DNA of 64,000 bases from a virus (IMGVR_UViG_3300034073_003340:356634-420633), one strand, 5' to 3'; shown: positions 5,335 through 36,227, counted from the first letter of the stretch. A program made the numbers and translations. The notes: generated by a model not told the origin, from the sequence alone.

Positions 5335-5910
5335 TTACTTCTTAGGTAGTGGAGCAATGATAGCAAAAAGCTGGCGCTCGCTTCGAACCACCGGACGTTC
5401 AAACTTGTAATCCGTGAGAGCATCGCAGAATTCCCGCATCACGTTTGCTCCCACATCCAAATGGGTAATCTCACGCCCTTTGAACTTCATGACAATTTTG
5501 ACCTTGTCGCCATCTTCAAGAAAGCTTTGGGCGCGGCGTGCTTTGACCTTGAGATCATTGCTGTCAGTTGTAGGACGAAGTTGAATTTCTTTGAGCTCAA
5601 CTCTGGCCTCTCGGGCTTTTGCTTTGTTTTCCTTCTCTTTACGGCTCTGCTCATATTTGAACCGCCCGTAATCGAGAATCTTACATACTGGAACTCCATC
5701 GGCAATATTAATTGCCACTAGATCCAGACCTGCTGCGCTCGCTCGACGTCTTGCTTCGATGGTGGGTATAATGCCTACCTGCTCGCCAGAGTCAGCAATG
5801 AGACGAACCTCCCTTGCTCGGATTTGATCGTTCACCGCATATTGAAAATTCAAAGTCGTTATTCCTTTCTGTTGCCAAGCTATCCTATGATAGAAATTTC
5901 TTGGTGTCAA
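5335..5910 (-). CDS. infC: Translation initiation factor IF-3
   Basis: Strong full-length similarity to bacterial IF-3 across both domains: IRAREVRLI..GEQVGII, AGLDLVAI...PVCKILDYGRFKYEQ, IQLRPTTD.NDLKVK.R....FLEDGDKVKIVMKFKGRE. It carries an N-terminal extension of about 25 aa. Confidence 0.85.
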   Translation of the reverse strand: MTPRNFYHRIAWQQKGITTLNFQYAVNDQIRAREVRLIADSGEQVGIIPTIEARRRASAAGLDLVAINIADGVPVCKILDYGRFKYEQSRKEKENKAKAREARVELKEIQLRPTTDSNDLKVKARRAQSFLEDGDKVKIVMKFKGREITHLDVGANVMREFCDALTDYKFERPVVRSERQLFAIIAPLPKK

Positions 5911-7164
5911 TTACTCGTTAGCTGCCTTGGTATCAAATACTACCAAGGGCTCACACTTTCCTTCAATTACATCGGCGGTTACCCTGACCGTATGTGCGCC
6001 CTGTTCCTTTAGATCCGGAAGATCATATTGTACTCGAATAAGGCGTTTCTCAATAACAGACCTAAGACCTCTGGCTCCTGTCTTACGAGAAATAGCATCT
6101 TTTGCTACTGCGCGAAGAGCCTCCTCGTCGAACTCCAGAGATACTTCTTCGAGACTAAACATCTTCTGAAATTGCTTTACCAAGGAATTCTTGGGTTCAG
6201 TTAGAACCTGAACCAGTTGATCCTGATCCAACTCTTCAAGACTGGTGATAACGGGAAGTCGTCCCACGAGTTCAGGAATCAAACCAAATTTTGTTAGGTC
6301 CTCTGGTTCAACAGCTGATAGAACTTTGTTTGATTCGCTCTTTTCCTGTTCAGTCTGAACGTTGGCTCCAAAACCAATTGATCCCTTGTTTTTATTCTGT
6401 CGCTTGTTGATGATTTCGTCCAGACCCACAAATGCCCCACCAACAATGAACAGAATATTCTTGGTATTCACAATGGCCATTTCCGCATTAGGGTGTTTGC
6501 GATTGCCTGTGACTGGAACTCGAACTTCGCTTCCTTCGATGATCTTCAAAAGAGCTTGCTGAACTCCTTCACCCGAGACATCACGGGAGATGCTCGCACT
6601 GTCGCCCCTCTTGGCTTTTTTATCAACTTCGTCGAGATAAACGATGCCTCTTTCGGCCTTTGCTATATCATTGTCACAGACCTGGAGAAGGCGAGAAATG
6701 ATAGTTTCCACATCATCGCCCACATATCCAGATTCAGTCAAAGACGTGGCATCAGCAATAGTAAATGGAACGTCCAACAGCTTGGCGATGCTACGAGCCA
6801 TCAAAGTCTTACCAGAGCCAGTAGGACCAAGGAGTAGAATGTTGGATTTCTCCAGTTCCACGTCGTCAACCACAGGATTAGCAAGTCGCTTATAATGATT
6901 ATGGACCGCGACTGCCATCACCATTTTGGCATCATTTTGACCAATAACATACTGGTCAAGGAACTCTCGGATCTGTCGAGGGCTTGGAATGCTGCCATCT
7001 TTTAGAAGCTTGGCTTCAGCGTTGCTATCCTCTTTTAGAATATCTGCGCAAAGTTGAACACAGTCATTACAGATGAAAACATCTGGACCCGCGATCAACT
7101 TGGTTACCTGTTCTTGACGCTTACCGCAAAAAGAGCAGCTTAGATTTTTCTTATTCTCGCTCAT
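5911..7164 (-). CDS. clpX: ATP-dependent Clp protease ATP-binding subunit ClpX
   Basis: N-terminal C4 zinc finger (CSFCGK...CNDC), Walker A GPTGSGKT, and AAA+ sensor motifs. Length of 417 aa is typical of ClpX. Confidence 0.9.
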   Translation of the reverse strand: MSENKKNLSCSFCGKRQEQVTKLIAGPDVFICNDCVQLCADILKEDSNAEAKLLKDGSIPSPRQIREFLDQYVIGQNDAKMVMAVAVHNHYKRLANPVVDDVELEKSNILLLGPTGSGKTLMARSIAKLLDVPFTIADATSLTESGYVGDDVETIISRLLQVCDNDIAKAERGIVYLDEVDKKAKRGDSASISRDVSGEGVQQALLKIIEGSEVRVPVTGNRKHPNAEMAIVNTKNILFIVGGAFVGLDEIINKRQNKNKGSIGFGANVQTEQEKSESNKVLSAVEPEDLTKFGLIPELVGRLPVITSLEELDQDQLVQVLTEPKNSLVKQFQKMFSLEEVSLEFDEEALRAVAKDAISRKTGARGLRSVIEKRLIRVQYDLPDLKEQGAHTVRVTADVIEGKCEPLVVFDTKAANE

Positions 7165-8619: not shown

Positions 8620-9084
8620 TTATACACGCTTGCTCAAGAGACGCTTGAACAAACCAATGAAGCGATTACCTAAACATTCAAGTTGAGTTTTGATAGAAGG
8701 ATCTCGCTGAGGCGTGATATCAGTCAGGCCGTTATAACGATCCAAGAATTTCCAAGAAATATCCTTGGCTCCGAAAACCTCAAGAGCCTTGAATGCCATT
8801 TCTGGATCTAGGTCGCTACAGGTGTAGATGTCAAATTCAATAAAAGGCTGCTCGCACTCATCCCAAGTATGTAGGACCATATGAGATGTTGTGATGAGAA
8901 CCATCGCGGTCATTCCGCGATTTCCAACCTGTTCACAATATTCAGCAGAAGCCTCTTTGAGAACTTCCATATTCATTGCGTGAACGATGTCAGTAAGCCA
9001 CTGTTCGACCATTCGCTCATCCTTTTTCAAGGGCGGACGATCAACAGCGGCGTGAACAATCAGGTGCTTGTGAAGCTTTGCCAT
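8620..9084 (-). CDS. speD: S-adenosylmethionine decarboxylase proenzyme, class 1 (SpeH/SpeD-like)
   Basis: Close match to small bacterial/archaeal AdoMetDC: HLIVHA...GMTAMVLITTSHMVLHTWDE...IEFDIYTCSDLDPEMAFKALE versus [20 protein letters not shown]...IDLFTCG. The Ser-His processing site is retained. Confidence 0.75.
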   Translation of the reverse strand: MAKLHKHLIVHAAVDRPPLKKDERMVEQWLTDIVHAMNMEVLKEASAEYCEQVGNRGMTAMVLITTSHMVLHTWDECEQPFIEFDIYTCSDLDPEMAFKALEVFGAKDISWKFLDRYNGLTDITPQRDPSIKTQLECLGNRFIGLFKRLLSKRV

Positions 9085-9723: not shown

Positions 9724-11595
9724 ATGTCCAATAACATTAAGAAACTAACAGATTATCAGCACGCTAGACTCAGAACAGAGATGTATCTGGGCTCAAGAGC
9801 GCTTCATACCCAAAGCGTCCTACAGTTTGTAGATGGTGTTCCTAAGCCAGTTGAAACAAGTTGGGTTCCGGCAACCTATACGGCTTTCAGAGAAGTTCTA
9901 GACAATGCCTTAGATGAGGTGGTAGGCCATGGACACGGATCCAGGATTGACGTAAACTACGACGTCAAGACTAGGGAAATCAGTATTTCTGATGACGGGC
10001 GTGGTATCCCCTTTACCTATGATGAATCACATAAGATGCATCTTGCTACCTTGGTTATGACCGAAGCGCGAGCTGGTCGAAACTTTGAGGAGCGTGGCGA
10101 AGTAGCAGGCACCAATGGTATTGGTGCGTCGGTTGTAAACTTTTGTTCAGAATATTTCCGAATGGAAATCAACAAGGACGGTGAACGTTTTCAACAAGAG
10201 TTCACGCAGGGCAATGCGGTTTTCGGTGATGAGCTTCAAGTTGGTAAAGCTAAAATCACCAAGAAGCAAGGTAAGAACGGAACCAAGATTACATTCAAAC
10301 TTTCAGACGAAGTATTTCCTGACCTAACACTACCTGAGGAATTTATCAGGACCAGAGTAACAGAGGTCGCGATCTGTAATCCTCTTATCAAAGTCTATTA
10401 CAATGGTGAACAGATCAAGGTAAAGCCCCGTCCAGAGCAAAGTTTGTTTCCTGGTTTGAAGCCTATTGCTCTTGAGGTAAAGGAAGACACGTTCCGTTCG
10501 CGCTTTTGGATTGTGCCTAACTGGATTGATGGCGGTGAACACGTTCACACGATTGTAAACAACATTCCCGCGTTCAACGGCGGGGTTCATATCGACACAT
10601 TCCGTCGTTTGTTCTATGGAAATCTTCTGACCGCGCTGGAGCGTGAAAGCAAGCGTCGCAAATTGAGTCCCAACCGCAGTGACGTCACTGAGGGTGTTCT
10701 GATCTACAATATTACGAACATGCGAGCTCCTAACTTTGACAGCCAGAGCAAGACTCGACTGATCAACGAAGAGGTAGGTAAGATCCTCAAGGATCACCTC
10801 GACAACCCAGAACTCTACAAGGACTTCATCAAGAAGAACAAAGAGTGGATTGAAGAGATCTACAAGCGTTGCGCAGAGCGTACGATGAAAAAGGATCTTG
10901 GGGACTTAGCAAAGGCTGCTAAGAAGAACCTTCGTAATAAGGTTCCTCGTCTCATGGACGCTGCGGGTCAAGATAGATCCAAATGTATCCTATTTCTAGC
11001 AGAGGGTGAATCAGCCATCTCAGGAATGGGTGCCGCCCGCGATCCTGATCTACATGGCGGTCTCGGCATGAAAGGCAAGGTTCTCAACGTTAACGGTGAA
11101 ATGCCCAAGAGGGTTATCGAGAACAAAGAGCTCGCTGACATCATGAATTGCTTGGGGCTGATTATTGGCCAAAAGGCGCACCGTGGTGCTTTGCGTTATG
11201 GTAAGGTTTACATTGCGCACGACATGGATCCTGACGGTTTGAACATTGGCGCTTTGATGATCAATTTTTTCCACACTTATTGGCCTGAGCTGTTTGATCC
11301 CAATCAGGAACCCTTTGTTCATATTTTTCGAACTCCCTTTATTATTGCGGAAAAGGGTAAGACTCGCAAATATTGGTATGCCCACAATTATCATGAGTTC
11401 AAACCTGAAGAATATAGTGGTTGGACCATCACGCGGGCCAAGGGGCTTGGAACGCTAACTAGGGAAGATTGGGAATATAGCTTAAAGAACCCAGAAGTAT
11501 ATCCGGTCTTGGATGATGGCAAAATTGGTGAAACTCTAGATTTGATTTTCAATAGCAAACGTTCAGACGATCGCAAGGCGTGGATTGGACTCTAA
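9724..11595 (+). CDS. DNA topoisomerase II large subunit (T4 gp39+gp60-like, GyrB-type ATPase plus Toprim)
   Basis: GHKL ATPase motifs (EVLDNALDE, DDGRGIP, GTNGIGAS), a Toprim segment (LFLAEGESA..., DMDPDG), and a length of 623 aa consistent with a fused 39/60. Confidence 0.85.
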   Translation: MSNNIKKLTDYQHARLRTEMYLGSRALHTQSVLQFVDGVPKPVETSWVPATYTAFREVLDNALDEVVGHGHGSRIDVNYDVKTREISISDDGRGIPFTYDESHKMHLATLVMTEARAGRNFEERGEVAGTNGIGASVVNFCSEYFRMEINKDGERFQQEFTQGNAVFGDELQVGKAKITKKQGKNGTKITFKLSDEVFPDLTLPEEFIRTRVTEVAICNPLIKVYYNGEQIKVKPRPEQSLFPGLKPIALEVKEDTFRSRFWIVPNWIDGGEHVHTIVNNIPAFNGGVHIDTFRRLFYGNLLTALERESKRRKLSPNRSDVTEGVLIYNITNMRAPNFDSQSKTRLINEEVGKILKDHLDNPELYKDFIKKNKEWIEEIYKRCAERTMKKDLGDLAKAAKKNLRNKVPRLMDAAGQDRSKCILFLAEGESAISGMGAARDPDLHGGLGMKGKVLNVNGEMPKRVIENKELADIMNCLGLIIGQKAHRGALRYGKVYIAHDMDPDGLNIGALMINFFHTYWPELFDPNQEPFVHIFRTPFIIAEKGKTRKYWYAHNYHEFKPEEYSGWTITRAKGLGTLTREDWEYSLKNPEVYPVLDDGKIGETLDLIFNSKRSDDRKAWIGL

Positions 11596-11608: not shown

Positions 11609-11893
11609 ATGAGCTATCATGACTGGCTTTCAATATGGTATTCCCCTAGTGAAGATGACATAATTGCCTTTATAACACTAGAGCGAATTGCGGAAATTGG
11701 GGGTGTTGATCTTTCCAACACCCCCAATGGGGTTGACGCCCACCAGATAAACTATGGTCTTTCTGTCATACAGAGATGGTGTCGACACCACTGCTCTTCG
11801 GTTCCAAGACCGGTCAATATTAGGGGTAAATCAGGCTTCGCCTTTACAAACCAGTCTGACGCAGTTCTGTTTAAACTTACCTGGGGTGGATAA
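11609..11893 (+). CDS. FKLTWGG-family small protein (array member 1)
   Basis: C-terminus WCRHHC...DAVLFKLTWGG; 1-nt TAATG overlap with the next gene. Confidence 0.65.
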   Translation: MSYHDWLSIWYSPSEDDIIAFITLERIAEIGGVDLSNTPNGVDAHQINYGLSVIQRWCRHHCSSVPRPVNIRGKSGFAFTNQSDAVLFKLTWGG

Positions 11894-12183
11894 TGGAATC
11901 AGATTACGACTACATAACAATTTGGATGACAACCAGGAATCCATCAAACGAAGACTACACTACATCAAAGTTGAGCAATGAGTGTGTTGAATGGCTGGAG
12001 ACCAATGTTGGCAAAGGTCTCTACAATTTTCACGCTTGGCTTCTATCCCATGACGACGACGATGTTCAATGGTGTTATTTAGGGTTTGAATGGCAGGACG
12101 GCAGATTATCAGATTATAGAAAATTCATGTTCAAAGATAGAAGAAAAGCTTTTCTTTTCAAATTGATTTGGGGAGGAAAGTGA
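11893..12183 (+). CDS. FKLTWGG-family small protein (array member 2)
   Basis: C-terminus ...VEWLETNVG...KAFLFKLIWGGK. Confidence 0.65.
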   Translation: MESDYDYITIWMTTRNPSNEDYTTSKLSNECVEWLETNVGKGLYNFHAWLLSHDDDDVQWCYLGFEWQDGRLSDYRKFMFKDRRKAFLFKLIWGGK

Positions 12184-12458
12184 AACAGTTTGTTTTCACT
12201 AGAAGTCGCCAGACTCCAGGAAATTCTATTAATGCCTGGCGATTGGGCGAACTCATGGGAGTGAAATTTGAAATCCTAGAAACCTATGAAAAATCGTGGA
12301 ACCAATTTGCTACCAGAATTATTGACGAGCTAAGTCTCTGGTGTAAGAATAGTGGGATAAGGCATTTTGGTCTTGGCTATACTCAGATCGCTATTCAAAT
12401 AACATTTGCGGAACCAGCAGATGCTATGCTTTTTAAGTTGAGATGGCACAATGCCTAG
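12168..12458 (+). CDS. FKLTWGG-family small protein (array member 3)
   Basis: C-terminus LWCKNSG...DAMLFKLRWHNA; 16-nt overlap with the previous gene. Confidence 0.65.
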   Translation: MGRKVKQFVFTRSRQTPGNSINAWRLGELMGVKFEILETYEKSWNQFATRIIDELSLWCKNSGIRHFGLGYTQIAIQITFAEPADAMLFKLRWHNA

Positions 12459-12654
12459 ACCACCTGAACCTGGATACCTACGATTCAATCCTCCTATAGC
12501 TCTGGGATCTGATCGATATTTTCGAGCCTGGGCCCTACTGGAAGATATGGGCATCAAAAACAAGGTGGCCTTTATCTACAGAGGAAGACAAGATCTCCAC
12601 GGTCTGGCCTTTCCTTCAAAAGAACAAGCAATGATTTTTAAGTTGAGGTTGTGA
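12451..12654 (+). CDS. FKLTWGG-family small protein (array member 4, short)
   Basis: C-terminus EQAMIFKLRL; ATGA-type coupling to its neighbours. Confidence 0.55.
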   Translation: MPRPPEPGYLRFNPPIALGSDRYFRAWALLEDMGIKNKVAFIYRGRQDLHGLAFPSKEQAMIFKLRL

Positions 12655-12905
12655 TGGGAACGGTTCACCGAAATGGCACTCCGCCAAAAAAGCTACTATT
12701 CAAAAAAGTAATCACGTTCTCTGACATGAAGTTCAATGAGGAAATCATTTGTAAATGGGCTCGAGAACACTTGGTTCATCATATGCAATATGATTTTGTC
12801 TTATTCAATGGTTCCAAGGGTAAGCTGAATAGATCAGTTGAATTCACTGCTTGGTTTCAAACCAAAACAGACTCTGAACGTTTTGAGTTAGCGTGGTTTC
12901 AATGA
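12651..12905 (+). CDS. Divergent family member (array member 5)
   Basis: C-terminus TDSERFELAWFQ resembles the motif weakly; translationally coupled to both neighbours. Confidence 0.45.
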   Translation: MMGTVHRNGTPPKKLLFKKVITFSDMKFNEEIICKWAREHLVHHMQYDFVLFNGSKGKLNRSVEFTAWFQTKTDSERFELAWFQ

Positions 12906-13198
12906 ATCAAAAAATCTACATAGTGGATAGAGAAGACCAGGTGGGTTGGTATCTAGATCCTGAATCCATAAGCTTTTGCCTCAACCTAAAGGATAAAAAG
13001 CGAGAGGTGAGAGAATGGCTAGAAGAAATGACCAATAGTATTGTCGTCATAAGCGGCCAGGGCAAGATGCCAAGATGTGGCACCGAGGATCATCCCACGA
13101 ATATGTTTAGTTCTATTCAAAGACATCAGTTCAGAGTATATTTTGCCGATGAGCAAGATGCTATGATCTTCAAGCTTAGGTGGGGAGGTTCTCCTTGA
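12893..13198 (+). CDS. FKLTWGG-family small protein (array member 6)
   Basis: C-terminus EWLEEMTN...DAMIFKLRWGGSP. Confidence 0.65.
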   Translation: MVSMNQKIYIVDREDQVGWYLDPESISFCLNLKDKKREVREWLEEMTNSIVVISGQGKMPRCGTEDHPTNMFSSIQRHQFRVYFADEQDAMIFKLRWGGSP

Positions 13199-13476
13199 GC
13201 AGTAATGTCTTTGAATGTGATGTTGATAACAAACATTACTGGATTATTTCTGTAGGTCTTGGTTCGTCTATAGCAATGCGTTTGTTAGACGTAGCCAGGT
13301 CTGAGGGTCGATGCCCTATGAGTCTGAGCAATCTAGCTGATGAAATACTCGATGCTTGTGGTCAATGGTGCTTTGAAAATTGTTCAGGAAATTATCAGCT
13401 TGACCCAACCTATAGATTAGAGATTTGGTTTGATGATCCAAGTGACGCAATGCTTTTTAAGTTAACTCATGGGTAA
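13180..13476 (+). CDS. FKLTWGG-family small protein (array member 7)
   Basis: C-terminus CGQWCFENC...DAMLFKLTHG. Confidence 0.65.
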   Translation: MGRFSLSSNVFECDVDNKHYWIISVGLGSSIAMRLLDVARSEGRCPMSLSNLADEILDACGQWCFENCSGNYQLDPTYRLEIWFDDPSDAMLFKLTHG

Positions 13477-13669
13477 CAATATGTTTAGTTGTAGATTATG
13501 GAAAATTACGATTTCGTCATTGTTTCCAAACGGTAACAACGTCAGAAACGTCTTTTGGGCTTACAACTTTGATGAGATCAGAGCGAGAGCAGCAGCAAAG
13601 CGATGGATCAAAAATGAAAACAACGGCGAGTCCGTTGACACCATCGTATCGGTTGACGTTATCAAGTAA
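13469..13669 (+). CDS. Small hypothetical protein inside the array (no family motif)
   Basis: 66-aa ORF translationally coupled to member 7 and lacking the FKLTW tail. Confidence 0.35.
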   Translation: MGNNMFSCRLWKITISSLFPNGNNVRNVFWAYNFDEIRARAAAKRWIKNENNGESVDTIVSVDVIK

Positions 13670-13752
13670 GAGCTTAGAAGAGGGCATATGAGAAAACGAT
13701 CAGCCCTTTTCAGCGAACACTAGGAAGCAATCCCGCTTCCTGGAGTATTGTT

Positions 13753-14022
13753 ATGTCTTGGAGCCCTCCCCGTAAGTATAAGGGGAAGAGAAGTCAGTGG
13801 CCGCAGGCTGCTGAAGTCACGATTCATTATCCCGAAACCCTGTCGGGCCGTTCTCTGAATGCCATCAGCTCACGCGAAGCCGTCCGCCAGATGCTTTATG
13901 AAATGGAAGAATGGTGTGAAACCCATTGCTCGCATGAATGGTATTCTGCCGGATATTCTCGGTGGTCTTTTGCTAAGACTTCTGAGGCGGTATGGTTTAA
14001 GATGGTCTTTGGAGGCAAATAA
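13753..14022 (+). CDS. FKLTWGG-family small protein (array member 8)
   Basis: C-terminus EWCETHCSHEWY...EAVWFKMVFGGK. Confidence 0.6.
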   Translation: MSWSPPRKYKGKRSQWPQAAEVTIHYPETLSGRSLNAISSREAVRQMLYEMEEWCETHCSHEWYSAGYSRWSFAKTSEAVWFKMVFGGK

Positions 14023-14387
14023 TGTCAGAAATGAAAATCACCAGGGTTTGGTGGCGAATCTTGAGACCTTACAAGGTCGAGTGGCAGGAAGCCTATTCCA
14101 AGCATCAAACTCAGGCCGGGGGTGGTCCGTTGAGGGGCGAAGAACTTCAAGGACCCTTTTATGTGATGCGATCTAAGGTTCAAAATTTTCTAGTAAATTT
14201 GCCGGAAGCATCATTCTTTGGAATCTCATATAAGGCATGCTGCTATGTCTACCAGACCAGACGGGTCGACTTTGGAACTGCTCCGGGACCATACGGTGGA
14301 AAAATCATAGCAAGTCCTCCGCCGCCATTCTATATGGCTAGGAAAGCAGATGCCCTGATGCTAAAGCTAGCGTGTGGAGGAGATTGA
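14022..14387 (+). CDS. FKLTWGG-family small protein (array member 9, divergent)
   Basis: C-terminus DALMLKLACGGD; 1-nt overlap with the previous gene. Confidence 0.55.
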   Translation: MSEMKITRVWWRILRPYKVEWQEAYSKHQTQAGGGPLRGEELQGPFYVMRSKVQNFLVNLPEASFFGISYKACCYVYQTRRVDFGTAPGPYGGKIIASPPPPFYMARKADALMLKLACGGD

Positions 14388-14733
14388 GCCTGGTCCAGCG
14401 CATGGAAGCGCAGAGAACGCATCCGTTAGGGTAGTCTCTGGAATACGTCTGAGGATTGGATTCACCGATCAAAAATTCAAGTATAGATTTGATTCACGTA
14501 ATTTCTATTGGAAACATGGTATCTCCCATGAAGTTCATCGATGGCTTAAAAGAACCTTTGGTCCCCAATGTCAAAATCGTGCGCTTTGGGATAACGAAAA
14601 CCCCGAGGATGGTCAGTGGATTTATTTAGGAAGTCAGAACCGCAAGAATCGCTCACAAAATACAGTGACGCTCCAGTTCAGATCTGTGAGTCAGGCATTG
14701 TTATTCAAGCTGACTTGGACGGGGCGTCTCTAG
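14374..14733 (+). CDS. FKLTWGG-family small protein (array member 10)
   Basis: C-terminus RWLKRTFG...QALLFKLTWTGRL. Confidence 0.65.
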   Translation: MEEIEPGPAHGSAENASVRVVSGIRLRIGFTDQKFKYRFDSRNFYWKHGISHEVHRWLKRTFGPQCQNRALWDNENPEDGQWIYLGSQNRKNRSQNTVTLQFRSVSQALLFKLTWTGRL

Positions 14734-15080
14734 AGTCTACCGGGCGCATTATACCGGATCATATAGGCAAAAGCATCAGACTAACTCAAGGATACAAAGT
14801 AAGTATACGTGGCCCCTCTCAGGGCCCATATAGTGGCAAAATTAATGGGTTTCATCGACACGGCTTCCCTTTGGATCTCAAGGATTGGTTAGACCGAAAT
14901 GTTGGTGATACTGCCCCTCATCATTTCTGGGAGGAGGGCCAAGGTGACTGGCTTTATCAAGGAAGTAGGTGGGCAAAAGGATATTCTAGTTTCAAAGGCG
15001 GAAGTCTTTATCTGGATTTCCGCATCAGGGATCGTCACAAAGCCTTACTCTTCAAGCTAACCTGGTATGATACTCTGTAG
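14616..15080 (+). CDS. FKLTWGG-family small protein (array member 11); start uncertain
   Basis: C-terminus DWLDRNVG...KALLFKLTWYDTL. The only in-frame ATG (14616) lies 118 nt inside member 10 in another frame, and there is no canonical start between 14734 and about 14870. Confidence 0.5.
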   Translation: MDLFRKSEPQESLTKYSDAPVQICESGIVIQADLDGASLESTGRIIPDHIGKSIRLTQGYKVSIRGPSQGPYSGKINGFHRHGFPLDLKDWLDRNVGDTAPHHFWEEGQGDWLYQGSRWAKGYSSFKGGSLYLDFRIRDRHKALLFKLTWYDTL

Positions 15081-15351
15081 ACTCCCATATGATCGCTGCT
15101 CGCAGCGATTTCACTATCATAACGACTGGGGTCGGCCAACAGTCAGTGTAGGCCTTAGAACTGATATGGACGAATGGTTTGTTGAGTATATGGGCAAGCG
15201 TCCACGTTATGATATAAACACTTGTCCTGGTTATATTGAATTCTATATGCCCAACCGTGGACTAGCAGCGTTATTCATACTAAGTTGGATCGGTGAGGAA
15301 TCTGTGATGAAGAACAAGCCTGTGCCCCGACCAGGTGGGGATCTCTGCTAA
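15067..15351 (+). CDS. Divergent family member (array member 12)
   Basis: C-terminal region ...GLAALFILSWIGEES; coupled to member 11. Confidence 0.45.
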   Translation: MILCRLPYDRCSQRFHYHNDWGRPTVSVGLRTDMDEWFVEYMGKRPRYDINTCPGYIEFYMPNRGLAALFILSWIGEESVMKNKPVPRPGGDLC

Positions 15352-15412: not shown

Positions 15413-16765
15413 ATGAATCAAAATAGCTCATCAGATTATATCCTAGACACCAGTCGCGAATACTCAATTTACGTTTGCGAAAGCCGAGCAATTCCAAAAG
15501 TTGCTGACGGTCTCAAAGACGCCCAACGCAAGGCGTTATGGTTGGTTCGCAATAGATCAGATAAAACAAAAACCGTTTCGCTAGCTGGTGAAATGATTTC
15601 CAGCGGCCTTTATCTACATGGTGACCAAAGTGCGGCCGGGGCTATCAGCATGTTGGCTGCTCCATATGTTAACAATGTTCCACTTTTGGAAGGTATTGGT
15701 TCGTTTGGAACCCGAGTGGCACCGGTAGACGGTATCGGCGCTCCGCGTTATACCTATGTCAAACGTGGAAAAGCGGCCCAAGATCTTATGTTTATGGATC
15801 TTGATATCGTACCGGTCAAAGAAAATTATGACGGTTCCACTATCGAACCCCAAAACTTCCTTCCCCTCATCCCAACAGTGCTCTTAAATGGAGTCTCAGG
15901 CATTGCTGTTGGTTGGTCTACCGAGATCTTACCCAGATCCTTTAAGAGCCTCGTAGACGCCACATTGGCCATTTTAGACGGAAAAAAGATCAAGCGTATT
16001 CCACCTTCCTATGATCTCTACGACGTGGGGGTCAAACACTTGGAGGATAATTCTTGGGAGTTCACTGGTAAGTTGGAGATTGTTGATACCAGCACGATCA
16101 AAGTTACCGAACTGCCTCCAGAACTCACGTTGGAGAAATTCAAAGAACGTCTCAACACCTATGAAGACGAAAATAAGATCTCTTCATATACTGATCGTTC
16201 AACTGATACCATTGATATCACGATCAAAATGGCTAGAGGGTCTTGTAAGGGTTGGTCTTCTACTAGAGCTATTGAATATTTCAAACTCAAGCAGAAGAAG
16301 TCAGAACGTATTGTGGTTATCGACTGGAATGGATCCTCTATTCGTCAGTATGAAAGCGCCGAAAAGCTTGTTGAGGATTTTGTTGAATGGCGACTGGGAT
16401 GGTATAAGACCCGCTATGAAAACAAAGTGGCCAAGGACGAATATGAACTAGGATTTTGGAAGGGGGTCAAGCTTTGCTTTGATGATAAACTTCCTGCTCG
16501 ACTAGGTGCTATCAAGAGTCGATCTGAACTAGATCAGGACGTCAACAACGTTACATCAAAGCTTGCCCTTGATAACAAGCGTATTGACCGCATCGTCAAT
16601 CTCCCAGCTCATCGTTGGACCAAGGATGCGTATGGTGATGTTTTGGCCAAAATCAAAGAGCTAGAAGCTAACATTAAGGAATACAAGCGTATTCTAAAGG
16701 ATCCTGAGGAGCGAAAGTCCATCTACCGATCAGAAGTAGAGGCTCTAAAAAAGACCAAGTTCTAA
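15413..16765 (+). CDS. DNA topoisomerase II medium subunit (T4 gp52-like, GyrA-type breakage-reunion domain)
   Basis: N-terminal DGLKDAQRKALW (the GyrA/ParC DGLKPVQRR signature) and a length of 450 aa like gp52. Confidence 0.8.
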   Translation: MNQNSSSDYILDTSREYSIYVCESRAIPKVADGLKDAQRKALWLVRNRSDKTKTVSLAGEMISSGLYLHGDQSAAGAISMLAAPYVNNVPLLEGIGSFGTRVAPVDGIGAPRYTYVKRGKAAQDLMFMDLDIVPVKENYDGSTIEPQNFLPLIPTVLLNGVSGIAVGWSTEILPRSFKSLVDATLAILDGKKIKRIPPSYDLYDVGVKHLEDNSWEFTGKLEIVDTSTIKVTELPPELTLEKFKERLNTYEDENKISSYTDRSTDTIDITIKMARGSCKGWSSTRAIEYFKLKQKKSERIVVIDWNGSSIRQYESAEKLVEDFVEWRLGWYKTRYENKVAKDEYELGFWKGVKLCFDDKLPARLGAIKSRSELDQDVNNVTSKLALDNKRIDRIVNLPAHRWTKDAYGDVLAKIKELEANIKEYKRILKDPEERKSIYRSEVEALKKTKF

Positions 16766-21796: not shown

Positions 21797-22096
21797 CTAA
21801 TGGGTTTTACAGGCAAGCGTTCCTAGCCATACTAACTTGAAATAGATAGCATCTTGCTTGTTTTCAAAAGATATATTGTGAGGTGTCGTCGTATTATCAA
21901 TGGAGTAACAAGCTTTGGTATGTTTGTTCAACCAAATTGTTTCTTCCATATTGGGTTTGCGAACCAGTCCAATCTGATATTGGTAATATTTGAGGGACTG
22001 GCGATGGGGATATCTCCAGACACTAAGACGCTGGTGGTCTGCGGGAGTCAGCCGGTGCTTGATATCCCAATATTTCCGGCTCACTGTCCACTCCAT
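21797..22096 (-). CDS. FKLTWGG-family small protein (cluster 2 member)
   Basis: C-terminus DAIYFKLVWLGT. Confidence 0.55.
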   Translation of the reverse strand: MEWTVSRKYWDIKHRLTPADHQRLSVWRYPHRQSLKYYQYQIGLVRKPNMEETIWLNKHTKACYSIDNTTTPHNISFENKQDAIYFKLVWLGTLACKTH

Positions 22097-22371
22097 GTCA
22101 ACTTGAACAATACAGCTTCATTGACATCAGAAAACCAGATGTCAACCACAAATTGAAAAGCGATGTCGTTGCCATTGATATATATTGGCTCATAGGTTGA
22201 AACATAGACATCATTTTCGCAGTGGTCCCTTATCCATCTGCACATCTCGTCAGATAACGATGGAATAGATGATGACGATTCAATCTCAGGGTGATTTACT
22301 GGCAGGGCAACAGAGAAAAACCCAGCCTTTTTCCTGAATGTTTCGCTGCGGTTGTAGAGAAATATATTCAT
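22081..22371 (-). CDS. FKLTWGG-family small protein (cluster 2 member)
   Basis: C-terminus RWIRDHCEND...EAVLFKLTWSGQ; overlaps its neighbours by 16 nt and 4 nt. Confidence 0.65.
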   Translation of the reverse strand: MNIFLYNRSETFRKKAGFFSVALPVNHPEIESSSSIPSLSDEMCRWIRDHCENDVYVSTYEPIYINGNDIAFQFVVDIWFSDVNEAVLFKLTWSGQ

Positions 22372-22598
22372 AGGAAAGTTAGTTTAAACAGCAAAGCATG
22401 GTCAAGCTTTTCAAAACACCAAGTTACCACAAAATGAGGCTCGGGTGTTTTAACTAGTTTCCATCCCGCAGTCGTAACTCTACCTGTATTGTGGTCTTTC
22501 ATCCATTGTTTGAACACCGGGGTCGCCACTGGATTATTTCTTATTCCCCTGGTTACCGTTAGACTGTTGGCCGGCACCGTGACATGATACTTTTTCAT
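22368..22598 (-). CDS. FKLTWGG-family small protein (cluster 2 member)
   Basis: C-terminus KQWMKDHN...HALLFKLTFL. Confidence 0.6.
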   Translation of the reverse strand: MKKYHVTVPANSLTVTRGIRNNPVATPVFKQWMKDHNTGRVTTAGWKLVKTPEPHFVVTWCFEKLDHALLFKLTFL

Positions 22599-22858
22599 AG
22601 AAATGTCAACTTGAACATCGCCGCGTGGACCTGGTTGCTGAAGAAGATCTTGGTGGGAAGCTCTTTGATCAGGTTGTGACTAATGTTCATGATGATCCAG
22701 TGGTCACGAACTGGCGTGTATTGGTGTTGGTCAGGGTGGCGGAACTGTCGAGGCCCAACAACCCTTTCCAACCACTCTTCAGCTTCCTGGGTCAACTTTA
22801 CCGCATAGCCTGGCATCCATACACGATCATTGTCGCGATGGACGCTAATTGAAATCAC
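22595..22858 (-). CDS. FKLTWGG-family small protein (cluster 2 member)
   Basis: C-terminus EEWLERVVG...AAMFKLTFL. Confidence 0.6.
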   Translation of the reverse strand: MISISVHRDNDRVWMPGYAVKLTQEAEEWLERVVGPRQFRHPDQHQYTPVRDHWIIMNISHNLIKELPTKIFFSNQVHAAMFKLTFL

Positions 22859-23145
22859 GAGAACTTGGCCTCGAACTCCTGAGCTACCTCGATTCGATCC
22901 TTGGGGAAGAACACGGTTGTGATGTCGTGCTCGTCCGACGAACGCGAGGTCATGACCTCGATACCATGGCCCTCAATGAAGGCACGAGCCTCATCGCCGA
23001 TCACCCAATGAAAGGTGTCCGGCCACTTGTGATCCGTTTCCTTCTTCATATGAGCGAAGCCGACCATGCGTACGGGAATACACAGGGCCTGCTTCGCCCG
23101 TATGCGCTCAAAAGCGGACATGATCTCGGCGTGACGGTCGGTCAT
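22855..23145 (-). CDS. Hypothetical protein in a GC-rich cassette with the CCA gene
   Basis: 96-aa ORF with a 4-nt overlap to cca; local GC is clearly higher than the flanks (by eye). Confidence 0.45.
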   Translation of the reverse strand: MTDRHAEIMSAFERIRAKQALCIPVRMVGFAHMKKETDHKWPDTFHWVIGDEARAFIEGHGIEVMTSRSSDEHDITTVFFPKDRIEVAQEFEAKFS

Positions 23146-24278
23146 GCTTCGATCGCCAGCAGTTCTTCCTTGGTTCGCGTAAACCGACTGAATACCCAGG
23201 CATTCTCCAGCATCCGCAGCCGCTGACCCATGGCCGGGCCAGGCTTCATACCCAGTGCCAGCAGATCCTTACCCGTTACCGGGAAAGTGGGAACCTTGAA
23301 CGCCTCGGCATGACGTGCCAGCGAGGGCTCGCCTGCGATCTCCAGCATGGAAACCACATGATCCAGGGGGAACTTGTCGCGAGTCAGCATAACCTCAACC
23401 CGCTCTTCGGTCCAGTTCAGACCGCGATTGCGAATCAGGTTGCGCACCTTGGCTTCTTCGGCACTGCTCATCTTCCAAAACTTGAAGAAGTTCTCTTCAT
23501 CGGTGTTGGCGATCAGCGTCGACAGAGCAGCAACCGCATCATCCGACCGAGCCAGCTCAACGGGGTTGAACCGGAAAACACCCAGCGCACGATTGACGCC
23601 GGTCTTGAACATCGCGTCAACGATCCGAACCCGAGCCGGCATCTTGGGATCCAGCAGCTTGCTCATTTCCTGCCAAAAACGCTCCACACTGACAAGGTTC
23701 AGTTTGTCCAGAACTTCGGCATCGCTGAACAGATCCAGATCGTCCTGGCTCATCGTGCTGTCGAAACGAGCAGCAAAGCGGAAGTAGCGCAGAATACGCA
23801 GGTAATCTTCCTGGACTCGCAGTTCCGAAACACCAACAAAGCGCACAACCTTGTTCTTCAGATCCTCGCGACCACCAAAGTAGTCGTAAACCAGACCGTT
23901 GAAGTCCATGCTCATTGCGTTGATGGTCAGGTCGCGACGCTCAGCATCAATTTCGAAGCTGCGAGTAAACTCAACCTCGGCATGTCGACCGTCAGTCTCG
24001 ACATCCACGCGCAGGGTGGTGACCTCAAATGCTTCGCCGTCCACGACCAGCGTTGCCGTGCCGTGCTGGACACCGGTGGCAATGAAACCAAACTTGTTGG
24101 TGTTAGCAATAGCTTTCATTTCGTCCGGAGTAGCATCGGTGCAGAAGTCCACATCCTTGGGGACCACACCCAGCAGAGCGTCACGGACGCAACCACCAAC
24201 AAAGCGGATCTCGAAACCGGCAGAAGAAAATGCTTCTCCCAGCTTGCGCGTTTCCGGTGTCATCAGCTTGTCCAGCAC
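23142..24278 (-). CDS. cca: tRNA nucleotidyltransferase (CCA-adding enzyme) / poly(A) polymerase family
   Basis: Pol-beta head GGCVRDALLG..PKDVDF, RRDLTINA, and the neck ED..RILRYFRFAARF motif. Confidence 0.8.
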   Translation of the reverse strand: MLDKLMTPETRKLGEAFSSAGFEIRFVGGCVRDALLGVVPKDVDFCTDATPDEMKAIANTNKFGFIATGVQHGTATLVVDGEAFEVTTLRVDVETDGRHAEVEFTRSFEIDAERRDLTINAMSMDFNGLVYDYFGGREDLKNKVVRFVGVSELRVQEDYLRILRYFRFAARFDSTMSQDDLDLFSDAEVLDKLNLVSVERFWQEMSKLLDPKMPARVRIVDAMFKTGVNRALGVFRFNPVELARSDDAVAALSTLIANTDEENFFKFWKMSSAEEAKVRNLIRNRGLNWTEERVEVMLTRDKFPLDHVVSMLEIAGEPSLARHAEAFKVPTFPVTGKDLLALGMKPGPAMGQRLRMLENAWVFSRFTRTKEELLAIEA

Positions 24279-24315: not shown

Positions 24316-25044
24316 CTATTCGGGAGACGTCAACCTATTTGATTTTATTGTCAGCATTCTGGCTTTGAATTCTTCAGCAAGATCAGGGCGAAACAAAAAT
24401 ACCATAGCAAGCTGCCAAATACGCTGCTGTCTCCGCTCCTCAGACTTTTTGTTTCTCTCGGCATCGCGGATTTGCTTTGCTCCGGACAGCTTGCGATTTC
24501 GCTTGGTCCAGAGTTCGGGATTCTGTCGCGCTTTGAGAAAATCCTCAAAGGGTTCAGTTTGGCGATCACTGTTACATAGGGTACAAGCGAGAGCCAGATT
24601 ACTCAGCTTATCAGTGCCGCCATACATCTGAGGAATCTTATGATCCACCGTGGCCATTTGCTTTACCAGCATACCTTCCGGCGGACGCTGTTTTTTAACA
24701 CCCTCAACTGGTAGCCAGGTTTGACAATTACAAAATACGCAACGTCCATCCTGTTGGTTGAAGAGCTTGATGAGCTTTTTGCGCCTACTCATAGTGAATT
24801 TGGTATACCACCACTCCTTTTGATCGGGCGTTGGCCACTTTCGATTGACACCAGCTCGTATGACCTGACTATACGTCATATGATCAAGATGGCCAGCATG
24901 AATTTTATTTGTCTGGCTTACTGGGGATGCGATTGTAGATGTCTCGCATAACAAAGATGGGAAACATGATGAGTCGGACTGCTCCAACAACGAGTCGTTC
25001 TTGAATTCCTCGATTCTTTCCATGTTCCATTTTGTAATCTCCAT
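24316..25044 (-). CDS. HNH endonuclease
   Basis: CVFCNCQ...VDHKIPQMYGGTD...NLALACTLCN: an HNH core with flanking Cys pairs. Confidence 0.7.
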   Translation of the reverse strand: MEITKWNMERIEEFKNDSLLEQSDSSCFPSLLCETSTIASPVSQTNKIHAGHLDHMTYSQVIRAGVNRKWPTPDQKEWWYTKFTMSRRKKLIKLFNQQDGRCVFCNCQTWLPVEGVKKQRPPEGMLVKQMATVDHKIPQMYGGTDKLSNLALACTLCNSDRQTEPFEDFLKARQNPELWTKRNRKLSGAKQIRDAERNKKSEERRQQRIWQLAMVFLFRPDLAEEFKARMLTIKSNRLTSPE

Positions 25045-25061
25045 ATCATTACAACCGTAGT

Positions 25062-25307
25062 CTATTCACCACCAAAGGTCAACTTGAAAAGAATAGCAGT
25101 CTGTTTGCTTTCAAAGGCAAAGACATCCCGAGCTCTCTCACGACCCAGATAGTCATAATCTTGGACGATTTCCAAGTTGGCTTCTCTTAGCCAAAACTCT
25201 ATTTCTCGCATTCTTCGCCCGACCGCCGTTTTGACAACATGACGGGATGATATATTACTCAAATCCATCATCAAACCCCATATCAAAATACTGTGCGTCG
25301 TCGTCAA
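25062..25307 (-). CDS. FKLTWGG-family small protein (single)
   Basis: C-terminus EFWLREANL...TAILFKLTFGGE. Confidence 0.6.
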   Translation of the reverse strand: MTTTHSILIWGLMMDLSNISSRHVVKTAVGRRMREIEFWLREANLEIVQDYDYLGRERARDVFAFESKQTAILFKLTFGGE

Positions 25308-35202: not shown

Positions 35203-35388
35203 TCAGACTAGTTCGTTATCAAACTGTAGACGAAATTTGAAGGCATCGTCGATGTTTGAAAATCCAACTTCTAAACCGTCAACTGCCGGATTCAAGACAT
35301 AGCCCTGCACTTGCTCGTCTTCAAGCCATTTTTCAACTTTGGTTTTGGAATCGGGTCGTGCCCGCATAACCCACGAATTTGCGACCAT
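35203..35388 (-). CDS. Possible degenerate FKLTW-family member
   Basis: C-terminus DDAFKFRLQFDNELV resembles the motif only weakly. Confidence 0.3.
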   Translation of the reverse strand: MVANSWVMRARPDSKTKVEKWLEDEQVQGYVLNPAVDGLEVGFSNIDDAFKFRLQFDNELV

Positions 35389-35951: not shown

Positions 35952-36227
35952 TTAACCTACAAAAACATTAGGTGAACCAGTGGCTACTTTGCTCTTACAC
36001 ATAACCGGATCACCTTTTCGTCCCTGCTGCCGACCGTTAGTAAAAACAGTGCTAGAGCCCCTGGCTAGCTTGCTGGTGTGATCTTTATGAAAAGCCCACA
36101 TATCACCTTGTCTATGCGCTGGTTTGCCATTTATAAAAACATCAGGCGAGCCTTGTAGATTTGGTCGCGGCTTTGCGTCGCCGTGCCCGGTACACTTATC
36201 ACCCAAGCGAGCCGCTGGCTTACCCAC
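35952..36227 (-). CDS. PAAR-repeat protein (T4 gp5.4-like spike-tip)
   Basis: GDKCTGHG...GSPDVFINGKPAHRQGD...GSSTVFTNG...GSPNVFVG: three PAAR-type repeats in 91 aa. Confidence 0.7.
   Translation of the reverse strand: MGKPAARLGDKCTGHGDAKPRPNLQGSPDVFINGKPAHRQGDMWAFHKDHTSKLARGSSTVFTNGRQQGRKGDPVMCKSKVATGSPNVFVG

Follow-up and report, generated by a model that had tools for sequence, protein, structure and literature searches.

Introduction

Comeau et al. (2007) reportedly described hyperplastic regions in T4-like phages, in which small and for the most part early ORFs cluster between conserved core genes, and the polyimmunity loci of Zhang, Iyer and Aravind (2011) are said to hold tandem, divergent small immunity proteins, among them the SUKH and Imm families. 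For Bacillus phage G, a lineage-specific expansion of a zinc ribbon to approximately 35 copies has been documented (Iyer et al. 2021, PMC7824862). Here, we analyzed a 64-kb stretch of DNA (hereafter the window) from a metagenomic jumbo phage that is kin to Sinorhizobium phage Phosso and Agrobacterium phage Atu_ph07. Positions 11609–15351 of the window carry 13 same-strand ORFs, 12 of which have a common C-terminal domain, between the genes for the large and the medium subunit of topoisomerase II. We are highly confident that this interval comprises twelve ancient paralogues of an undescribed, expanded family together with one unrelated small gene. As in hyperplastic regions of the T4 type, the small-ORF content is variable (0–15 genes) and the core flanks are conserved.

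Organization of the array and its surroundings

The upstream flanking gene showed 70% identity in tblastn to the 'DNA topoisomerase large subunit' of Phosso and 60% to its Atu_ph07 counterpart, and its orthologue in the related contig L003 matched Pfam DNA_gyraseB, while orthologues of the downstream gene matched DNA_topoisoIV. Spacings of only 13 nt between the large-subunit stop and m1 and of 61 nt between m12 and the medium-subunit gene, together with overlapping junctions, argue for co-transcription. Most junctions within the array are stop/start overlaps of 1–19 nt, including TAATG at 11893 (m1/m2) and 14022 (m8/m9), ATGA at 12180 (m2/m3) and 12902 (m5/m6) if ATG starts are assumed as in the relatives, and overlaps of 8 nt at 12451 and of 14 nt at both 14374 and 15067. 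The operon-like coupling proposed in an earlier, sequence-only reading is thereby borne out, with a sole true intergenic gap of 83 nt (13670–13752). This gap contains a hairpin whose 3' arm extends into the GGAG preceding the m8 start codon, and which is the same in L003 and L004, whereas the flanking intergenic bases vary. A scan for consensus promoters returned 16 candidates against 13.3 expected, i.e. chance level. Other genes neighbouring the arrays encode ClpX (assigned by synteny to 5911–7164, upstream of the array), IF3 and the CCA-adding enzyme.

The sequence-only reading had counted twelve genes in the interval. All twelve members stand, and their ORFs and C-termini were the same on re-reading, but the interval holds a thirteenth gene (13469/13481–13669) that is not a member: it gave no match to the family HMMs, and is 92% identical in L003 and L004, in both of which a 62-aa gene is called. 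The upper end of the size range given there (67–154 aa) hinges on the GTG start of m11, as the TTG at 14715 would yield 121 aa. Nor is the array the whole repertoire, since six additional members lie elsewhere in the window, which brings its total to at least 18, and approximately 55–59 occur in Phosso. The second array adjoins the gene for the CCA-adding enzyme (23142–24278), an arrangement that recurs in L004 and Phosso.

Table 1. Features of the window discussed in the text, with the evidence used for each assignment.
Feature	Position	Strand	Description	Basis
Topoisomerase II large subunit (GyrB-like)	9724–11595	+	upstream flank	tblastn
m1	11609–11893	+	94 aa; ends ...DAVLFKLTWGG	ORF, alignment, HMM
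m2	11893–12183	+	96 aa; long subtype, EWLETNVG...W.YLG	ORF, BLASTP, HMM
m3	12168–12458	+	likely start ATG 12180 (92 aa)	database gene call P0002 begins MKQF
m4	12451–12654	+	67 aa; ends ...AMIFKLRL	ORF, HMM
m5	12651–12905	+	likely start ATG 12654 (83 aa); divergent end ERFELAWFQ	HMM
m6	12893–13198	+	likely start ATG 12902 (98 aa)	HMM
m7	13180–13476	+	98 aa from GTG 13180, or 93 aa from candidate start codon 13195; ends ...DAMLFKLTHG	shorter form implied by 93-aa L004 call
Non-member ORF	13469–13669	+	likely start ATG 13481 (62 aa)	
Hairpin, 9 bp	13720–13743	+	inside the only gap of the array	terminator-like scan
m8	13753–14022	+	89 aa; ends ...EAVWFKMVFGGK	ORF, HMM
m9	14022–14387	+	121 aa; ALMLKLACGGD; weakest array member	HMM
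m10	14374–14733	+	119 aa; long subtype; orthologue P0009	BLASTP, HMM
m11	14616–15080	+	long subtype; 154 aa (GTG 14616) or 121 aa (TTG 14715)	120 aa in L004, 154 aa as P0004
m12	15067–15351	+	94 aa; degenerate motif AALFILSWIGEE, then 19-aa tail	ORF, HMM
Topoisomerase II medium subunit (GyrA/ParC-like)	15413–16765	+	downstream flank	synteny with Phosso 'topoisomerase IV subunit A'
Second array, four members	21797–22858	-	21797–22096, 22081–22371, 22368–22598, 22595–22858	HMM
Solitary member	25062–25307	-	81 aa; ends ...TAILFKLTFGGE	HMM
Solitary minimal member	35203–35388	-	61 aa; ends ...DAFKFRLQFDNELV	HMM

A protein family defined by its C-terminal domain

MAFFT alignment of the members yielded the C-terminal consensus ...F.(D)A.LFKL.W(GG), in which A, F and L are nearly invariant, and a Trp helix whose nearly invariant Trp lies approximately 28–45 residues before the C-terminal block. 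Many pairs of members were linked in BLASTP comparisons, with E-values as low as 5e-10. A first HMM, trained on the 12 array members and four Phosso ORFs, recovered the six untrained ORFs of the window (E 2e-9 to 1.5e-3) and returned nothing with E < 1 in the other reading frames of the window. The HMM A5, built almost entirely from proteins outside the window, found 17 of the 18 window members and gave no other match in the six-frame translation of the window; m9 was matched solely by window-derived HMMs. Across 456 domains, seven columns are more than 90% conserved (W 96%, F 93%, A 96%, F 98%, K 93%, L 94%, W/F 94%), and the domain ends no more than two residues from the protein C-terminus in 87% of cases, with many members terminating in -L, -FL, -HG or longer tails rather than -WGG. 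The small paralogues therefore do share the conserved C-terminal domain that had been claimed for them. The N-termini, by comparison, are not alignable across paralogues, yet they are kept within orthologue groups, as exemplified by m1 and its orthologues P0001, P0005 and P0008.

Searches with 18 window and 10 remote members against Pfam-A 2025, PHROGs v4, NCBIfam 20 and PADLOC 2.0 returned no curated family above threshold, the best E-values (0.003–0.3) all being far short of the cut-offs. No family recurred over 116 members, the commonest one matching three, and the A5 profile searched against 177,635 PDB sequences reached a best E-value of 0.12 without domain-level significance. No member matched known defence, anti-defence or inhibitor families among the Pfam and PADLOC models, and no RNP, KH or HTH signature was found in Pfam. 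The earlier statement that the domain belongs to no described family thus holds for these collections.

Distribution and evolution

Inspection of the topoisomerase junction in related phages, a check suggested by the sequence-only reading, revealed copy-number variation: no small gene in Atu_ph07, approximately one in AP-J-162 (judged from the numbering gp551/gp553), four in Phosso, nine in L005, 13 each in the window, L003 and L004, and 15 in a 406-kb contig. Identity between the topoisomerase genes on either side is 84–97%, while the insert varies between 0 and 15 genes. The arrays consist of same-strand, overlapping genes and occupy several junctions of conserved genes; those of Phosso lie among tRNA genes and beside the genes for the CCA-adding enzyme and polynucleotide kinase. 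The Phosso genome gave 59 HMM matches, approximately 55 of them with a canonical C-terminus, so that the family makes up about 8% of the genes in this cultured relative, and the metagenomic L019 holds 22 members within 7.2 kb. An exhaustive profile search of 1.84 billion representatives (E ≤ 0.001) returned 1006 clusters at 50% identity. In tblastn over 50,697 phage records, a canonical member matched Phosso only. Single family copies are also present in prophage-like DNA. Only 3–5 very divergent relatives were found in 212 kb of Atu_ph07, which shares core genes and lifestyle, so that the expansion is dispensable for such phages. Tens of paralogues in one genome, against few or none in related lineages, mark a lineage-specific expansion of the family.

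Compared with the closest relatives, synonymous sites are saturated, and omega ranges from 0.01 to 0.26 where measurable. The best-conserved member between phages is m5 (94% identity to L003, dN 0.028). Identity to the L003 orthologue is 88% for m4, 73% for m9 and only 53% for m7, and m12 is the fastest-evolving member with 40%. One-to-one orthologues, their order and their own N-termini are kept across phages whose topoisomerases are only 85–87% identical. At the DNA level, the only repeat is a 35-nt motif-coding stretch of 69–77% identity, without long repeats, indicating that the copies are not recent duplicates; the proposal of old paralogues under protein-level selection is supported by these data. 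Gene number differs between phages, while single paralogues are maintained as orthologues by purifying selection. The array has the appearance of a stable group of specialised proteins rather than a fast-turnover arms-race cassette.

Predicted fold

The family comprises small (approximately 60–120 aa), soluble, single-domain proteins, with a negative GRAVY value in all members pointing to solubility. Independent AlphaFold models of m1 (pLDDT 85.7) and of the second-array member 22081–22371 (pLDDT 79.7) have a common topology, predicted to be a two-layer beta-beta-alpha-beta-beta-alpha sandwich. In these models, the conserved residues are mainly hydrophobic: the first long helix carries the Trp, the last strand the Phe, and the terminal helix A..FKL.W. 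As in ACT, DCoH/PCD and RRM-type sandwiches, four antiparallel strands lie under two helices, and DCoH/PCD presumably has the same strand and helix order as both models. The ACT domain was rejected, as its beta-alpha-beta-beta-alpha-beta order and ligand-binding loop do not apply to the family. Structural matches of the models were no better than any alpha/beta sandwich gives, and the second model had no match to GyrA. No metal site was recognized, as Cys at W+1 and W+5 are jointly missing in 230 of 456 domains. Isoelectric points of the window members range from 4.5 to 10.1, and acidic values (pI < 6.5) prevail in the family at large, with approximately 62% of 248 proteins.

Discussion

As the best explanation overall, combining the family description with a proposed role, we favour a scaffold with diversified binding surfaces, to which we assign a probability of roughly 0.45. 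The role as such, with the members acting as diversified binders in host takeover or anti-defence, is put forward tentatively and may well prove wrong. In this proposal, the conserved residues would form a common scaffold, while distinct binding surfaces would come from N-terminal strands particular to each paralogue and from the variable loop separating the Trp helix from the third strand; since the paralogues differ in these surfaces, each would have its own target among host or phage macromolecules. Transcription of the arrays would occur by read-through with replication genes, for which reason production early or midway in infection is proposed, and the products could constitute a repertoire of small modulators or inhibitors serving host takeover or neutralising host defence or toxin proteins. 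Stable one-to-one orthology and fixed gene order are no less compatible with specialised, housekeeping-like roles than with a role in conflict. The interpretation in the sequence-only reading is supported in part, the host-takeover, anti-defence or superinfection-exclusion repertoire that it proposed being a candidate role.

The location of Phosso arrays among tRNA genes and near CCA-adding enzyme and polynucleotide kinase genes, the CCA-adding enzyme gene beside the second array of the window, and the precedent of the approximately 35-copy zinc-ribbon expansion in Bacillus phage G (PMC7824862) could also indicate small nucleic-acid-binding regulators, either DNA-binding transcription factors or RNA-binding proteins that adjust translation or the processing of tRNA and mRNA. 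We regard this as unlikely, given the predominantly acidic and widely scattered isoelectric points without a common basic surface, the lack of RNP, KH or HTH signatures in Pfam, and structural matches at the level of a generic alpha/beta sandwich. A function as Clp adaptors or substrates, in which phage ClpX, ClpA or ClpS would be contacted by the invariant C-terminal helix or the free C-terminus and the variable part would deliver different host proteins to degradation, or in which the tail would serve as a built-in degron timing the removal of early proteins, is quite improbable in our view. A phage ClpX gene does lie just upstream of the array, Phosso additionally has ClpP, ClpS and two more Clp ATPases, AP-J-162 has six Clp ORFs, the C-terminal position of the domain and the conserved FKL lysine would suit docking, and adaptor families expanded in large eukaryotic viruses offer an analogy. 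However, Atu_ph07 also has Clp genes, with clpX by its topoisomerase genes, but hardly any family members, so that the co-occurrence is non-specific; moreover, the helix residues are mainly hydrophobic and lie on two faces by helical periodicity, as would be expected of a buried helix, and many members lack the -WGG end. The wider version, in which modular adaptors found in these jumbo phages alone dock through the C-terminal helix and tail on a common phage machine, the Clp set being the obvious candidate, and 50-odd N-terminal surfaces each capture a host protein of their own, has a small chance of being correct. If true, it would imply programmed degradation or remodelling of a large share of the host proteome and a bacterial-virus counterpart to the way in which poxviruses and giant viruses have expanded their F-box, ankyrin and BTB adaptors.

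Many small proteins are packaged by jumbo phages, and 112 additional function-unassigned proteins were detected in Atu_ph07 virions by ESI-MS/MS, in line with proteins that belong to the virion or are injected as internal proteins, or with small accessory factors in the morphogenesis of a 'hairy' jumbo virion. Such a role is very improbable, as the arrays are surrounded by replication, nucleotide and translation genes rather than by structural modules, the phage that supplied the virion proteome is nearly devoid of the family, and a targeting or cleavage motif common to the N-termini is absent, these being the variable part. From the constant position between large- and medium-subunit genes in this lineage one might postulate accessory subunits or regulators of phage topoisomerase II, but most members sit at other loci, the topoisomerase genes of Atu_ph07 are adjacent without an insert, the junction copy number runs from 0 to 15, and the second model gave no GyrA match, leaving this reading a minimal chance. 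Equally remote is the view that the genes are functionless remains of old duplications or spurious ORFs, which their small size, missing annotation and some degenerate members (m9, m12 and 35203–35388) might suggest: it is contradicted by ORFs that are open and in order in relatives with saturated synonymous sites and by omega well below 1, the seven conserved columns persist over 456 domains, and the fold predictions are confident.

Regarding known systems, the arrays resemble polyimmunity loci in that small alpha+beta paralogues stand in tandem, diverge from one another and combine a conserved core with variable surfaces, but they lack Imm or SUKH Pfam matches and an adjoining toxin cassette and belong to a lytic phage operon. 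With anti-defence islands (anti-CRISPR, anti-restriction) they share small accessory gene clusters whose content varies between relatives; such islands typically mix unrelated genes, whereas the array members are mutually homologous and orthologous in fixed order. The profile scans turned up neither a known anti-defence gene nor an Aca-type HTH regulator within or next to the array. Assignment as a polyimmunity or anti-defence island was rejected, with no Pfam or PADLOC match and with topoisomerase, ClpX, IF3 and CCA-adding enzyme genes as neighbours. T4-like hyperplastic regions likewise hold small, same-strand, overlapping genes between replication genes, with variable content and fixed flanks; however, their small ORFs are mostly unrelated, whereas in the present arrays almost all of them are members of a single family, found at many junctions and in tens of copies per genome. 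Compared with the zinc ribbon of Bacillus phage G, the family differs in fold, phage group and hosts, has no metal site and also occurs as a single copy in prophage-like DNA, but in both cases one small domain has been amplified to tens of copies within a single lineage of jumbo phages.

Organization of the topoisomerase junction

The interval between the two topoisomerase II genes of this metagenomic jumbo phage contains 13 successive plus-strand ORFs, twelve of which (m1–m12, 5′ to 3′) carry an alignable C-terminal domain. The sequence-only reading had described a twelve-gene array of small paralogues ending in a shared FKLTWGG motif; the twelve paralogues stand, but the interval holds a thirteenth ORF that HMM analysis places outside the family. 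This non-member encodes 62 aa from position 13481, is 92% identical in L003 and L004, the two loci most closely related to the window, and is recognisable in remoter relatives. The gene junctions overlap as had been claimed, with TAATG at 11893 and 14022, ATGA at 12180 and 12902 (given the ATG starts used in relatives) and overlaps of 8–14 nt at 12451, 14374 and 15067, and the sole true intergenic gap measures 83 nt. The proposed upper length of 154 aa is attainable for ORF 14616-15080 only with a GTG start, and falls to 121 aa if translation begins at TTG 14715. Within the gap lies a 9-bp hairpin (CTAGGAAGC aatccc GCTTCCTGG), which is unchanged in L003 and L004 despite saturated synonymous sites and whose 3′ arm extends into the GGAG preceding ATG 13753; it may control translation, act as a terminator or provide a processing site.

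The GC content of the array is 42–46%, compared with 45.8% for the entire window. Gene order is kept throughout the relatives, running from IF3, ClpX and the AdoMet decarboxylase-like gene through the topoisomerase large subunit, the array and the medium subunit to PTPS, Smr, a second small-gene array and the CCA-adding enzyme. The first three genes, named by synteny with annotated relatives, form a divergently oriented block directly upstream of the topoisomerase operon.

Features of the window in and around the small-gene arrays
Feature	Position	Strand	Remarks
IF3	5335-5910	-	
ClpX	5911-7164	-	
AdoMet decarboxylase-like gene	8620-9084	-	
Topoisomerase II large subunit	9724-11595		upstream of array; 70% identity to Phosso, 60% to Atu_ph07 orthologue
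Array	11609-15351	+	m1–m12 and one non-member ORF
Non-member ORF	13469/13481-13669	+	
Hairpin	13720-13743	+	in the array's only gap
Topoisomerase II medium subunit	15413-16765		GyrA/ParC-like; downstream of array
Second array	21797-22858	-	four members with overlapping genes, beside CCA-adding enzyme gene; same arrangement in L004 and Phosso
96-aa ORF	22855-23145	-	closes second array
CCA-adding enzyme	23142-24278		
242-aa ORF	24316-25044	-	HNH-type motif (HKIP...CTLCN)
Solitary member	25062-25307	-	
Solitary member	35203-35388	-	
91-aa PAAR-like ORF	35952-36227	-	Gly/His-rich, 'PAARLGD'

Comparison with homologous phages revealed that the number of small genes at the topoisomerase junction varies from 0 to 15. 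Agrobacterium phage Atu_ph07 (490 kb) has none, its topoisomerase genes being separated by a 10-nt gap, and AP-J-162 has about one, judging from the gene numbering gp551/gp553. Sinorhizobium phage Phosso (469 kb) has four, all with the motif; nine are present in a 315-kb ENA contig (L005), 13 each in the window, L003 and L004, and 15 in a 406-kb JGI contig. A megablast search of the array region against 50,697 phage records gave no match, and identical proteins are present on Logan and ENA metagenome contigs.

A shared C-terminal domain and its predicted fold

The domain comprises a helix whose Trp is almost invariant and often lies within WC..(H/N)C or WL..N, a strand with Phe at its end, and a terminal block (D)A.LFKL.W that is usually followed by GG. 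Conservation of this terminal block, as originally proposed, was borne out by the alignment of the twelve members and by BLASTP alone, in which many member pairs were significant (best E 5e-10). An HMM built from the twelve members and four Phosso ORFs found six more window ORFs, none of which had been in the training set, and nothing below E = 1 in the other frames of the window, while an HMM derived almost wholly from non-window proteins recovered 17 of the 18 window members and no other match. Across 456 domains, column conservation reached 96% (W), 93% (F), 96% (A), 98% (F), 93% (K), 94% (L) and 94% (W/F).

AlphaFold models of m1 (pLDDT 85.7, pTM 0.74) and of the member at 22081-22371 (pLDDT 79.7, pTM 0.69), which are different paralogues modelled from different input alignments, agree in topology: both begin with two strands, pass through the Trp helix and two further strands, and finish with a terminal helix. 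By helical periodicity, the conserved hydrophobic residues would occupy two faces of this terminal helix, consistent with one that packs against both the sheet and the other helix. Any functional or salt-bridge role would most plausibly fall to the invariant Lys. A metal site at WC..(H/N)C was considered and rejected as a family-wide feature because both Cys residues are missing from half of the domains and their association is weak (odds ratio 3.2). The members, which appear from their sequences to be soluble, span pI values from 4.5 to 10.1, a spread for which we also rejected the notion of a DNA mimic or otherwise uniformly charged protein. Seven metagenomic proteins of 143–245 aa (P0012, P0014, P0021, P0025, P0029, P0040 and P0046) each contain two tandem copies, so the domain tolerates an internal position.

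The suggestion that the domain belongs to no described family held up: Pfam, PHROGs, NCBIfam and PADLOC gave no near-threshold match for window or remote members, 116 members scanned singly returned no recurring family, and a profile search against PDB sequences was empty. All Foldseek matches in BFVD had E >= 0.05, the top two probably being unannotated members of the family themselves. The motif strings are absent from the searchable literature, the Atu_ph07 and AP-J-162 papers and a comparative review of jumbo phages do not mention the family, and no description of it was found in literature on Atu_ph07, Phosso or the motif strings.

Size and distribution of the family

The six further window members all lie on the minus strand, four in the second array and two as solitary genes. 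The 96-aa ORF that closes the second array overlaps its neighbours in like manner, and its family membership was undetectable by HMM (E 0.55). The 242-aa ORF, possibly a homing endonuclease, separates the CCA-adding enzyme gene from one solitary member; the PAAR-like ORF sits near the other, and a PAAR-domain protein is annotated in the syntenic region of Phosso.

A six-frame HMM scan of the whole Phosso genome yielded 59 matching ORFs, about 55 with the canonical C-terminus and all annotated as 'hypothetical protein', which amount to roughly 8% of its genes and cluster at 2.8-14, 95-100, 113-122, 166-177, 348-349.5 and 369.5-370.7 kb and at the topoisomerase junction. The largest array seen packs 22 same-strand members into 7.2 kb (L019 1-7212; IMG/VR UViG 3300031088_000008, 416,714 bp). 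A profile search of all 1.84 billion representative proteins returned 1006 clusters at E <= 0.001; the best 150 of these comprise proteins of 58–245 aa in which the domain is nearly always C-terminal, several having two tandem copies. Many of the database matches are carried by contigs of 200–470 kb. Single copies or pairs also occur in prophage-like DNA, namely one in a 35.7-kb high-GC viral contig with an integrase (L016 7280-7585) and two beside a collagen-like fibre gene in a Novosphingobium guangzhouense contig (L023 2037-3307), so the family is not restricted to jumbo phages. Among phages, tblastn of single members found Phosso alone, the remainder being noise, and Atu_ph07 has just 3–5 very divergent relatives in its first 212 kb. 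A scan of genomes from 185,579 species gave at least one match, a lower bound given that a single strict 10-residue DNA pattern was used. Atu_ph07 also has, at 44-53 kb (L034 32000-41200), a tandem run of about 12 genes of some 255 aa each on one strand, a separate paralogue expansion unrelated to the small-protein family.

Evolution of the array

Relative to L003 and L004, the topoisomerase proteins are 95–97% identical with saturated synonymous sites, and array members are 40–94% identical, with dN of 0.03–0.60 against 0.02–0.04 for the flanks and omega of 0.01–0.26 where dS could be estimated. These values indicate real and constrained genes, most of which evolve faster than core genes and at very unequal rates. 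In phages whose topoisomerases are 85–87% identical, members m3 to m6, the non-member ORF and, for the most part, m8 can still be recognised in unchanged order; others have been lost, gained or replaced. N-termini are paralogue-specific and kept within orthologue groups. The long-subtype members m2, m10 and m11 are mutual closest relatives, which points to duplication inside the array. Recent tandem duplication was rejected, as DNA-level repeats are limited to a 35-nt motif-coding stretch (69–77% identity) and dS is saturated; the view of old paralogues held under protein-level selection is thereby upheld. Overall, the family is old, very large, lineage-expanded and single-domain, and sits in overlapping-gene arrays at variable core-gene junctions, one of them inside the topoisomerase operon.

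Possible functions

Our tentative preference, at a probability of about 0.3, is that the members form a repertoire of small proteins that bind and act on macromolecules of the host or the phage. The pattern of conserved residues fits the role of a folding scaffold, which would present N-terminal strands and a loop that vary between paralogues. The spread of charge, together with conservation specific to each paralogue, suggests that the partners are many and different, and from the position of the array co-expression with replication genes would be expected. The repertoire for host takeover, anti-defence or superinfection exclusion that the sequence-only reading put forward stands as a hypothesis. 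Stable orthology speaks against a simple cassette in a fast arms race.

Other readings appear less probable. That the members are nucleic-acid-binding regulators is unlikely, and that they are Clp adaptors or degron-tagged proteins is somewhat more so. We consider a role as virion proteins improbable, and one as topoisomerase accessories very improbable. Equally little weight falls on the members as debris of old duplications, which the comparison with L003 and L004 contradicts, since genes with such omega values are constrained.

Significance

The family is notable for its scale: without a name in any database, it makes up about 8% of a cultured phage's genes and over a thousand metagenomic clusters. 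Once the function of one member is learned, annotation of a visible share of the unknown jumbo-phage genes would begin. Phosso and its host, Sinorhizobium meliloti, can both be grown in culture and the host is amenable to genetics, so that the timing of expression, the partners and the effects of knock-outs are directly testable. Members that proved to inhibit host defence proteins or toxin proteins would form a large new source of such reagents. The arrays also offer a clean case of large-phage growth, in which a single scaffold is duplicated at core-gene junctions and the birth and loss of genes can be traced between relatives. The genome architecture is of a kind already known in phages, and what is new in it is the protein family.
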